Virus record (IMG/VR): IMGVR_UViG_3300027801_001565
DNA length: 64,000 bases
DNA from: a virus
Direction: 5' to 3' (one strand)
The notes under the pieces: generated by a model
Database searches by the model: none
The model's input: only the letters and a program-made list of their open reading frames with translations
What the model was told of the DNA's origin: nothing
Part shown: piece after piece, positions 6,842 to 35,117 of the stretch
Numbering within the stretch: position 1 is the first letter of the stretch
Layout: each line of letters opens with the position of its first letter
Position numbers and translations under genes: made by a program

Positions 6842-6859
6842 ATGGTTCCTCCTTTAATA

Positions 6860-7110
6860 GTGGGCCCTATTGTAACAGGGTGGTGCCCATACCCCGACTA
6901 GCTTATGCCGCTAGTGCGTAACCATTTGCTTCTGCATTTAGTTTGTTTGCTTCTGCGTTGGAAAATACCAACAAGTCTTCCGCCTTGACTTATTCTCCAC
7001 TTACCTTATTATTCCCTGTCGATCCTAATTCTCCCCCTCATTTTTTATTGGTGGAGGAGCCGGGAATTGCACCCGGGTCCAGAAAACTTTATTCGTAAGT
7101 ATCAACGAAC
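6860..7110 (-). ncRNA. ssrA: Circularly permuted (two-piece) tmRNA
   Basis: On the minus strand the T-arm/acceptor 3' half ending CTCCTCC-A-CCA (7080-7049) precedes an 11-nt spacer and the 5' half GGGGGAGAATTAGGATCGAC (from 7037); G3-U70 pair; tag frame 6935-6903 = AEANGYALAA*. Outer ends approximate. Confidence 0.92.
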
Positions 7111-7179
7111 AATAGTATTTATTATACTTTAAAAGCATGTATTTGTAAAGAGTGAAGAACACCATAAAAGCTAGATAAA

Positions 7180-8151: not shown

Positions 8152-8228
8152 TGGTACGCCCTAGTGGATTCGAACCACTGACCCACAGCTTAGAAGGCTG
8201 TTGCTCTATCCAGCTGAGCTAAGAGCGT
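8152..8228 (-). tRNA. tRNA-Arg (anticodon TCT)
   Basis: ACGCTCTTAGCTCAGCTGGATAGAGCAACAGCCTTCTAAGCTGTGGGTCAGTGGTTCGAATCCACTAGGGCGTACCA; full cloverleaf with encoded CCA. Confidence 0.96.
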
Positions 8229-33142: not shown

Positions 33143-33526
33143 TTAAACAGTTATATTACTGTTTGCTATTACTTCCTTTTTACATAATGCCCAATCACAT
33201 TCAACATCATGTTCCTCAAAGTAATCCTCAAACACTATGTTTGTGCAAAAGTCAATTGCCTCAGTTTTGTTAAAAAACACATTACTCATGCTACTATTAC
33301 TGTATAAGTAATCCCCGTCCTCCTCAATTATGTACAAGTTCACAAAGTCATTAACCCTGTGTGTTTCGCCTTTCTCAGTATTTTGTAAATCCCTCAAAAG
33401 TGCTTCAATTTCCACAGTTACTTGTTCAATTTGTACTCCCTCCTCCTCAATGTATAATGTTATGTGTGTTTCCCCTAACGCCAAAGTGTTGTTAAGTGTT
33501 TGTAAAGCCGTTGTAAAGTTTTTCAT
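33143..33526 (-). CDS. Acidic early protein (127 aa) in a dinucleotide-depleted transcription unit
   Basis: Own promoter, AAGGAAG RBS and terminator; 25 D/E versus 7 K/R; no Pro. Confidence 0.8.
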   Translation of the reverse strand: MKNFTTALQTLNNTLALGETHITLYIEEEGVQIEQVTVEIEALLRDLQNTEKGETHRVNDFVNLYIIEEDGDYLYSNSSMSNVFFNKTEAIDFCTNIVFEDYFEEHDVECDWALCKKEVIANSNITV

Positions 33527-33569
33527 TTTGTACTTCCTTTTTAGTTTTTCATTTTGTTAATATGTACAT

Positions 33570-33598
33570 ATTATACTGTTTTTGGGAGTACATGTAAA
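33570..33598 (-). promoter_or_regulatory. Sigma70 promoter TTTACA-17-TATAAT
   Basis: Near-consensus with exact 17-nt spacer, upstream of 33526. Confidence 0.8.
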
Positions 33599-33664
33599 CC
33601 TTTTTATAGTACTATAACTGAGGTTTATGAGGGGCTATAGGGCGAAATCTTTTAAAAAGAATGC

Positions 33665-33693
33665 TTGACAAATGGTCCTAAAGAGTGCATAAT
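33665..33693 (+). promoter_or_regulatory. Early promoter TTGACA-17-CATAAT, GGTCC spacer class
   Basis: Followed by AACGGTATAAT as at 40765-40793. Confidence 0.8.
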
Positions 33694-33723: not shown

Positions 33724-33999
33724 ATGAGATTATACTTTAACTTAGATACCAACAGAACAATAAGATTCAGAGATATGGATGCCCCTAAGGGTGCCACTAC
33801 ATATAGCGCCGGACAGGACTGTGGCGAAGGTGAGCAGATACTGGAGCTAGCAGCAGATCTACGTGGTGTAGGTGTTGATGAGACAGGCTATACGTTTTCA
33901 TCAGATTTAGACTTCCCTAAGGAGTACGGTTTTATGGCAGATGATGATGCTCACCGTATAGTAGCGAAGGCATTAACAATCGCGGTTGGTGGTGTTTAA
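33724..33999 (+). CDS. Acidic hypothetical early protein
   Basis: GGAGA RBS after the early promoter. Confidence 0.75.
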   Translation: MRLYFNLDTNRTIRFRDMDAPKGATTYSAGQDCGEGEQILELAADLRGVGVDETGYTFSSDLDFPKEYGFMADDDAHRIVAKALTIAVGGV

Positions 34000-34000
34000 G

Positions 34001-34252
34001 ATGAGTAACTATTACATAGACGCAACGAGAGACAACTTAGAGATGAAGGCGACACAGATGTCAACTACAGAGCTAGCAGGAGAGCTTGGACTAGAAGTAG
34101 ACGCACTAAGCGAGAAGGCATTCGGTGATACCCCTGGTACACATGATGCCCCGAATGAGATTCTATTCACTGGTTATGATATCTTCACTTTTGATGAGCT
34201 AGTAGATATGTACGTCACGGCCCAATTCGATGGACTGGCGAGGCAATACTAG
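34001..34252 (+). CDS. Acidic hypothetical early protein
   Basis: Likely start MSNYY just after the upstream stop. Confidence 0.7.
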   Translation: MSNYYIDATRDNLEMKATQMSTTELAGELGLEVDALSEKAFGDTPGTHDAPNEILFTGYDIFTFDELVDMYVTAQFDGLARQY

Positions 34253-34256
34253 AATC

Positions 34257-34383
34257 CGCTTGTAAAGAAGTTATACGGGGTGTGCACCTTCCCCCTTGTA
34301 AAGAAGTATTCTCCCCCATGGTGCCATCCCCCTTGTAAAGAAATATCCGCTACCCTGTACCTAGTCGCTTGTAAAGAAGTATT
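34257..34383. repeat. Four interspaced direct repeats CTTGTAAAGAA(G/A)T at 36-37-bp period
   Basis: Core starts at 34259, 34295, 34332 and 34368, with non-identical intervening sequences. Confidence 0.88.
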
Positions 34384-34733
34384 AGGGTGGGTGGTGGCAA
34401 CTATCCAGAGTACCAAACGCGCCAATCTCCAGGGCTTGACAAAAGCTTCTGAGTGTGTTAAGACCTGGGCTGAGGGTGGTAGAATCTTTTGGGCGAATAG
34501 CTCTGGTACCCTAGCTGCTTGACATTCAAGGCGCGTTAGGTTAGATCTACCCATATACTATACCAGCGCTACCTAGCTATTCAAGTATAGACGGTGGGTG
34601 GTTGGGTGGTGGTTAGATTAAAGTGGTGGGGTGGTGGTGGCAATACAGAAGTATTCTACTACGGCTGGGGGTGGTAACTAACGATTATTGCTAAGGCGTG
34701 TGGCACCACGCTCTAGCCATCAAGTGCTCTTAT

Positions 34734-35117
34734 CTATTCGTTAAAAGGATCGTTATCTTCTGCTGTGTATGTGGGTACTCTACTACTCGTGCCAATAGAT
34801 TCTACTTCTCTCTCTACGTTATCTACTATTAACTGTGCCTCTCTCATCATACTATCTATGTCTCCGAATGTCTCTAACTCAGACGTAATAGGCTCTTTAT
34901 TAATCTCTTCAAACAAATCGGCTTGTATAGGTAATTCGTGAGTATTTACAGCATTGGTGCGAATCTCTGTGTATCCTATATCTCCCATGCGTCCCATCTT
35001 CTCTAAATCTGCCATCACTCTCTCTCGCGTAGGCTCTGGAAATCTCATGTTCTCATATTTTATATTAAATGTTACCAGTACATCTTGTATTCTCTGCTCT
35101 TGTGTCTTATCTGTCAT
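34734..35117 (-). CDS. Hypothetical protein
   Basis: 127-aa ORF, AGGAG RBS. Confidence 0.7.
   Translation of the reverse strand: MTDKTQEQRIQDVLVTFNIKYENMRFPEPTRERVMADLEKMGRMGDIGYTEIRTNAVNTHELPIQADLFEEINKEPITSELETFGDIDSMMREAQLIVDNVEREVESIGTSSRVPTYTAEDNDPFNE

Follow-up and report, generated by a model that had tools for sequence, protein, structure and literature searches.

Several described systems are built from short tandem repeats. Iteron origins such as R6K gamma, P1 and lambda ori carry co-oriented, asymmetric sites of ~17–25 bp, gathered at one locus near promoters; classical iterons are 21–24 bp apart, in helical phase, and lie beside a rep gene and an A/T-rich unwinding element. CRISPR arrays consist of near-identical repeats of ~23–50 nt that are separated by unique spacers of similar size. 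ToxI is made of tandem direct repeats of ~36 nt that are expressed as one RNA, and phages can carry ToxI mimics (pseudo-ToxI). In phage T4, the origin oriE combines evenly spaced direct repeats with dependence on an early promoter and a position at a strand switch, and oriF and oriG are primed by promoter-driven R-loops; the role of the oriE repeats is undefined (PMC3016281). TIGR arrays alternate two repeats of 8–12 nt, edge and loop, with 9-nt spacers over 5–15 units, next to a Nop-domain gene (PMC12045711).

The array described here lies in an early region of a marine phage and shares some features with each of these systems. It is a real, conserved and phage-specific non-coding element that stands outside the CRISPR, TIGR and ToxI families, and it most probably consists of protein-binding sites lined up where replication or transcription is controlled. 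Judged by analogy, its form comes closest to iteron arrays and T4-type origins, and the leading explanation is in that sense ordinary-looking. The element marks one fixed locus in a lineage of globally distributed, uncultured marine T4-like phages of ~170 kb; it has turned up in ocean metagenomes and metatranscriptomes, those of Tara Oceans and many others.

The window, i.e. the whole 64-kb stretch of DNA that was analysed, belongs to a T4-like marine myovirus that encodes a gp32-type SSB, a primase, both RNR subunits and PhoH. It also holds several radical-SAM genes, a two-piece (permuted, alpha-type) tmRNA with the tag AEANGYALAA and a tRNA-Arg(TCT) (6859–7160 and 8152–8228, minus strand). 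Similar tmRNA and tRNA genes have been reported for Melnitz and the pelagimyophages (PMC9004378). The gp32 of the window is only 55–59% identical to that of cyanomyophages and Melnitz, and a comparison of the array locus and the adjacent small protein with cultured phages returned no DNA or protein match; the lineage is thus uncultured. Its near relative G001 (170 kb, 99% complete; the locus is referred to as L137) has a radical-SAM protein that is 95% identical, and at the equivalent place it carries three units, 6 nt after the stop codon of the small early gene, with a period of 49 nt and other fillers.

In the window, the four copies that a first-pass annotation had reported are borne out: the core CTTGTAAAG opens each of four plus-strand units with periods of 36, 37 and 36 nt (Table 1). 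A scan of both strands found this exact 9-mer four times in the 64-kb window, always within the array, against a shuffle expectation of 0.78, and none of 100 shuffles reached four; a 15-mer with up to two mismatches gave five matches in the window where 0.65 are expected. The same annotation rightly placed the array directly behind an early gene, the TAG of the plus-strand ORF (34250–34252) lying 6 nt before the first core, and its partial copy downstream agrees with unit 2 at 13 of 14 positions. Its outline of the repeat holds as well, except that the conserved unit of the relatives is longer than stated and has, besides an invariant 13-mer, a tail rich in A/T and a C-rich lead-in, and that the fourth copy leads into a G-rich tract instead of a fourth spacer. 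Most arrays of the family have a last unit that ends in this way and runs into a G-rich tract. The gap that holds the array, between the plus-strand ORF and the convergent minus-strand ORF, measures ~480 bp; neither a tRNA nor an Rfam family was found at the array locus, nor an intrinsic terminator within 34253–34733.

Table 1. Position of the array and of associated features (window coordinates unless a relative is named)
Feature	Position	Strand	Remarks
Sigma-70-type early promoter, TTGACA-17 nt-CATAAT	33665..33693	+	11/12 consensus matches
Small acidic early protein, 83 aa from ATG	34001..34252	+	ORF listed from TTG at 33986
Unit 1, 36 nt	34259..34294	+	core CTTGTAAAG, AAGT, then filler
Unit 2, 37 nt	34295..34331	+	
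Unit 3, 36 nt	34332..34367	+	
Unit 4	34368..34384	+	core and A/T-rich tail only, directly into G-rich tract
First G-rich tract	34385..34398	+	directly 3′ of last unit
Promoter-like box P1, TTGACA-17 nt-TAAGAC (TTGACA ... TGTGCTAAGCCC)	34436..34464	+	both hexamer regions invariant in 16 relatives
Promoter-like box P2, GCTTGACATTC ... GGTTAGATC (aligned: GCTTGACATTC ... GGTTAGATCT)	34519..34547	+	ends invariant, middle variable
Block CTATTCAAGTATAGA	34578..34592	+	first base T or C; next 14 nt TATTCAAGTATAGA invariant
Second G/T-rich zone, several GGTGG-type runs	34593..34676	+	holds degenerate partial unit 34644–34657
Convergent gene, 127 aa, ends ...DPFNE	34734..35117	-	last gene of long minus-strand operon; closes the non-coding module
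Small acidic protein, relatives	L137:13067-13258 and L150:5985-6215	-	

Comparison of the family resolves the unit into an invariant 13-mer (CTTGTAAAGRWWT), an A/T-rich tail and a freely diverging filler. The 9-mer shows an invariance of at least 96% over 92 distinct units. Behind it stands GTTTWTTT or AAATATYT, in which T13 and T15 hardly vary, then a semi-conserved C-rich patch and a filler that ends in ..A.CC ahead of the next core. In orthologous units of related phages positions 1–13 are 100% identical and the remainder is 70–95% identical. A 13-mer that stays identical while the rest of the unit diverges is the signature of a sequence-specific binding site, and an invariant linear 13-mer that shows no covariation points to recognition by a protein. 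Arrays hold two to five units, and the fillers, 20–33 nt in length, fall into two size classes that are both found within single arrays. Relatives differ by point changes and by gain or loss of whole units (L222, for example, does not have the middle unit of L187). Variant cores (GTTG.., ..TATAG, ..AAAC) lie mostly at the 3′ end of an array, and no inverted copy was found within 600 nt of any array. Since the two dominant unit lengths, 37 and 49, each leave a remainder of 1 on division by 3 and TAA is part of the core, any three consecutive units place a stop codon in all three frames.

Genome and metagenome searches define the distribution of the family. A two-copy pattern retrieved three homologous loci from IMG/VR (L137, L150 and L164) and 67 loci from metagenomes, 52 of them homologous and most from marine, Tara Oceans or seawater accessions. 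Including the window, the family comprises 56 arrays with 44 distinct sequences and 195 copies, all of them co-oriented. Applied to 185,579 prokaryote species (one genome each, cores 28–58 nt apart), this pattern yielded no homologous locus. The motif forms a single array per genome; G001 has three of the 9-mers in its array and six more scattered in or next to open reading frames and devoid of the extended motif, which look like chance occurrences. Exact scans of IMG/VR with a single 15-mer and with a two-copy 11-mer pattern gave chance matches only. A triple-core scan gave 22 loci, of which L137 and L150 alone are homologous, the others being mostly coding or otherwise unrelated tandem repeats in a different context, and a scan of IMG/VR for the P2 box gave G001, G003 and four chance matches. 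A literature search for the repeat motif returned primers only.

Two features of the surroundings recur wherever they can be assessed. The 120 nt downstream of the last unit contain more G than C in all 39 arrays whose flank is long enough (mean G 38.5%, C 20%), and all arrays with enough upstream flank lie 1–67 nt after a co-oriented small ORF or the remnant of its 3′ end. The promoter-like boxes P1 and P2 are absent next to the array in the L150-type subfamily, and the more distant lineage L131 keeps P2 and the 16-mer but has no CTTGTAAAG array. Only the array and the G tract are therefore universal, and the array itself is dispensable in L131.

The early promoter drives two small plus-strand genes upstream of the array, and the promoter block recurs in G001. 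The second gene belongs to a family of small acidic early proteins of 64–84 aa that start with MSHF or MSN (19 members in alignment A1) and that are present beside every array with enough flank. They take the form MSHF..D.IADQAID...RPGPxG or, as in the window, MSxFHNEILLEG, and their gene is either the upstream ORF on the array strand or a convergent gene just past the G tract. Searches of Pfam, PHROGs and the ESM Atlas gave no match for the family, and the AF2 model of the protein is poor (pLDDT 63). Homologues of the 127-aa protein on the other side of the gap occur at the equivalent place in relatives; a pattern search of IMG/VR for further relatives of this protein found none.

In the subfamily of the window, a conserved module lies 3′ of the array (alignment A2), consisting in order of the G-rich tract, P1, ATCTTTTGGG and TGGTAC blocks, P2, a 16-mer and G/T-rich DNA. 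The 16-mer CCTATTCAAGTATAGA is invariant save for its first two bases, and the –10-like parts of P1 and P2 presumably resemble the alphaproteobacterial GCTANAWC type. Positions 34436–34592 amount to ~160 nt of non-coding DNA that is nearly invariant across 16 diverged relatives. No compensatory pairs were found in the module (RNAalifold, 0), and given this absence of covariation the cluster looks like a set of DNA-level signals.

The main puzzle of the region is the spacing of its parts. Among distinct arrays unit length is bimodal, with 36 nt (8 units) or 37 nt (22) on one side and 48 (2), 49 (67) or 50 nt (11) on the other, and short and long units are mixed within single arrays. Beyond the array, the distance from the last core to P1 is 42 (2 sequences), 68 (1), 77 (1), 90/91 (16) or 102 nt (3), and that from P1 to P2 is 60 (1), 72 (16) or 83/84 nt (4); from P2 to the 16-mer it is 61 nt in 18 of 18 sequences. 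All length differences are close to multiples of 12 (11–14, 22–23 or 48–49 nt), and the sequence between the fixed motifs drifts freely while the spacings step by ~12 nt. Comparative evidence of this kind indicates that the length of the unit is under selection and the sequence of its filler is not. Autocorrelation detected no 12-nt sub-periodicity inside the units, and the helical repeat of B-DNA is not 12. A spacing rule that is common to the array and the promoter-like boxes ties the array to DNA-level signals, at least in the subfamily of the window. A non-coding stretch of ~0.45 kb in which no spacing changes other than by steps of ~12 nt is under a structural constraint that is unexplained and testable.

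That the array is transcribed is no more than hinted at by metatranscriptome contigs. Co-transcription with the early gene, which the first-pass annotation had considered probable, is weakly supported by contigs that bridge gene and array in three of four runs; other contigs continue beyond the array, with coverage ending at 34522–34551, and depth drops after the early gene. The divergent promoter gap (33522–33643) is not covered by any RNA contig in four of four runs. All of this RNA evidence consists of assembled low-depth contigs that carry no information on strand or ends, and gaps in cover at 34552–34611 and, in run X18, over the array were for the same reason left out as evidence. Hairpins are predicted in some long units only (mean z –0.55 for long units, +0.16 for short ones), and in 24 arrays the array together with its G tract folds no better than shuffled sequence on either strand (mean z –1.05 and –0.94).

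Our preferred, if tentative, explanation is that the units are iteron-like protein-binding sites in an origin that is primed by early transcription, in the manner of T4 oriE and oriF. Iterons, packaging sites and a protein decoy, all named as alternatives in the first-pass annotation, are each compatible with the data, and of these the iteron-like reading is the one we favour. The 13-mers would be direct repeats to which a single sequence-specific protein binds, probably one made early by the phage, and the array and its obligatory G-rich tract would form the assembly site of a protein–DNA complex, which in the subfamily of the window would also include the two promoter-like boxes and the 16-mer. 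Host RNA polymerase would start at the early promoter and transcribe both small genes and the array with its bound protein, going on into the G tract, where the G-rich RNA would stay paired with the C-rich template as an R-loop, the 3′ end of this RNA then priming leading-strand synthesis. In this model, protein binding, R-loop formation and origin function are what we infer. Several co-oriented copies at a single locus are found here as in iteron origins. As regards an R-loop, an early promoter lies upstream, a G-rich non-template tract lies downstream in 39 of 39 arrays and RNA contigs enter the region, a persistent RNA–DNA hybrid there being conjectural. The array shares with iteron origins the layout of asymmetric, co-oriented sites near promoters, and differs from them in its G+C-rich fillers and in its period. 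Unit periods of 36/37 and 48–50 bp, in steps of ~12 bp, replace the helically phased spacing of ~21–24 bp, and periods of 37 and 49 bp are out of helical phase in B-DNA and far above the classical 17–24 bp. No Rep-like gene was recognised as a source of the initiator, and the small protein encoded next to the array is acidic, with no fold that could be recognised. A role at the RNA level would be equally consistent with the strict co-orientation with transcription and the location 1–67 nt behind a stop codon.

The parallel with T4 oriE is only suggestive. Both loci belong to T4-like phages and combine an early-promoter transcript over small ORFs, even direct repeats and a strand switch. The T4 repeats, GTT(A/G)AAGGTAAT, recur every 24 nt (NC_000866 3403–3570; L240); the heptamer TAAAGGT is found both in them and in the G-class units of the present family, and their period is also a multiple of 12, a likeness that may be coincidence. 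The reason for caution is that the T4 repeats lie inside the coding repeat of gene 5 and have no defined role. They are coding and antisense to repEA/repEB, whereas the repeats described here are non-coding, lie 37 or 49 nt apart and are followed by a G-rich tract; homology to repEA/repEB is lacking, and so are MotA and AsiA. Should the element prove to be an origin, marine T4-like phages would for the first time have an origin candidate that is defined by sequence, and iterons would be seen more cleanly here than at oriE, where the coding repeat confounds the picture.

Among the readings that act through RNA, the one closest to the data is an element in the 3′-UTR of the early operon, which would display three to five single-stranded CUUGUAAAG motifs as a sponge or recruiter for an RNA-binding protein of the host or the phage, or as cut decoys. 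It is a possible explanation, to which we give less credence than to an origin. In one version of it the cores would be cut to give units of 37 and 49 nt, in the manner of ToxI or CsrB, with the G tract protecting the 3′ end. The array follows a stop codon at a distance of 1–67 nt and invariably shares the direction of the upstream gene, which fits such an element, as do the common direction of 195 of 195 copies with no inverted copy within 600 nt, and the contigs that bridge gene and array in three of four runs while leaving the promoter gap uncovered in all four. A constrained unit length with free filler is what would be expected of an RNA measured by a protein, and the hairpins of some long units would leave the core single-stranded. 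On the other hand, a conserved fold, covariation and a strand-specific excess of folding are all absent, the RNA support comes from contigs that reveal neither strand nor ends, and promoter-like DNA signals obey the 12-nt spacing rule too. The 99%-complete relative encodes no ToxN, Nop or Cas1, and no such array was found among the 185,579 prokaryote species with cores 28–58 nt apart, a range outside which a mimicked CRISPR repeat with a spacing of ~65–72 nt would fall. If it acts as RNA, the element would be a new early-expressed decoy. A bolder idea, which we regard as improbable, is a new kind of phage RNA element in which the early transcript, cut at the cores into units of 37 and 49 nt or displaying the cores serially, would load onto or trap a ring- or filament-forming protein that measures steps of ~12 nt; this would amount to an RNA-based counter-defence or take-over device that has no known family of protein partners. 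A guide-RNA array (TIGR-like, a mini-CRISPR or an RNA anti-CRISPR), which the first-pass annotation had raised, is the least probable of the readings that we graded and is largely refuted. The period of 36–37 nt is that of a tigRNA, transcription would be from a strong promoter, the last copies are often degenerate, and TIGR arrays too are transcribed tandem arrays in phages with a ~36-nt period and short conserved and variable parts. What sets TIGR-Tas apart, the alternating repeats, 9-nt spacers, 5–15 units and a Nop-domain gene, is missing here: the array has one type of repeat only and lacks UG...CCA box pairs, the fillers are 20–33 nt with two lengths within one array, and the units number two to five, not 5–15. 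Position matrices show no second invariant block, as the annotation itself had observed for an internal repeat, and, again as it had noted, the neighbouring ORFs of the window do not encode a Nop domain. Several checks of the kind it had proposed likewise turned out against guide RNAs. In G001 (99% complete, 170 kb) Nop (PF01798, no match at E≤1) and Cas1 were not found and ToxN (PF13958) is absent; orthologous fillers differ by point mutations only, and arrays change by these and by gain or loss of whole units, with no polar acquisition. No spacer targets were found, the fillers of the window matching the rest of the window over at most 9–11 nt, as shuffled fillers do, and filler 2 having no exact match in IMG/VR. 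The unit is indeed too short for a canonical CRISPR, with only 13–17 nt conserved in a whole unit of 36–50 nt, and neither a Cas1 gene in G001 nor a prokaryote array with cores 28–58 nt apart was found. ToxI shares the tandem direct repeats of ~36 nt; its repeats are near-identical over their whole length and lie beside toxN, whereas here 13–17 nt are conserved and the fillers diverge freely, and no bacterial counterpart array was found among 185,579 species (cores 28–58 nt apart).

At the DNA level, the element could alternatively mark a boundary at which the array and G tract stop or insulate the strong early transcript before it collides with the convergent minus-strand operon, by pause or binding sites, by stop codons in every frame, or by a G-quadruplex or a C-rich rut site on the opposite strand. 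Its location exactly where plus- and minus-strand transcription converge speaks for this, together with the failure to find an intrinsic terminator in 34253–34733, the stop that three units (37 and 49 nt being 1 mod 3, with TAA in the core) put in every frame, and the fall in RNA contig depth past the gene, with cover ending at 34522–34551. A rut site is C-rich, G-poor and unstructured RNA of ~60–90 nt. Such a composition occurs only in the complement of the G/T tracts, which in this respect resembles a Rho entry site for the minus-strand operon; the array itself has C 22% and G 21%, its fillers C 34% and G 26%. Rho or pausing would also leave the invariant 13-mer unexplained, and on its left flank the early island in question has a hairpin terminator of the ordinary kind. 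A boundary function is unlikely in our estimate, if somewhat less so than the ring- or filament-loading RNA considered above. A pac-type packaging site bound by the small terminase is suggested by a marine phage whose array, with a period of 26 nt, repeats the same 13-mer (CTTGTAAAGGTTT), includes a single inverted copy and comes with a G-rich tract; this array (L165, 5244–5450) lies ~350 bp upstream of the small and large terminase genes. L165, L166 and L212 represent one phage, unrelated to the present family, and the position of its array is cos- or pac-like. The shared 13-mer was selected by the search pattern itself, and the resemblance may be chance. T4-type phages package by the headful from permuted concatemers, with no pac-type site involved, and the array of the window lies in an early island, far from structural genes; we consider a packaging site very unlikely, though not as improbable as guide RNAs. 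A minisatellite devoid of function is unlikely as well, since the core is invariant across lineages whose proteins are only ~50% identical.

Several other identities for the motifs were considered and rejected. The units do not qualify as sigma-70, sigma-54, MotA-box middle or T4 late promoters; few units, all of the G001 type, have a –10-like hexamer at the right distance, and neither MotA nor AsiA is present. The core as a mimic of an anticodon loop (CUUGUAA, the tRNA-Thr loop) was dismissed, as the flanking stem is neither conserved nor covarying. The IHF-like site upstream of the array (AATCAAGCACTTAG) probably represents instead what is left of the 3′ end of the small gene next to it.

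The left flank of the early island, the one with the hairpin terminator, has two outward-facing boxes, ATGCTTGAC(G/A)-~14 nt-GCTA, that mirror P1 and P2 (32793–32860, minus strand). One of their spacers is formed by ~20 nt of alternating purine and pyrimidine (GCGTGCGTGCGTGTGTGC), which is Z-DNA-prone, and G/T-rich repeats come next, with no CTTGTAAAG array. Finally, a strain in metatranscriptome X15 has a fifth unit of 37 nt after unit 3 (window 34348) and, in the G/T-rich zone, lacks 12 nt at 34648 and has gained 6 nt behind 34675.
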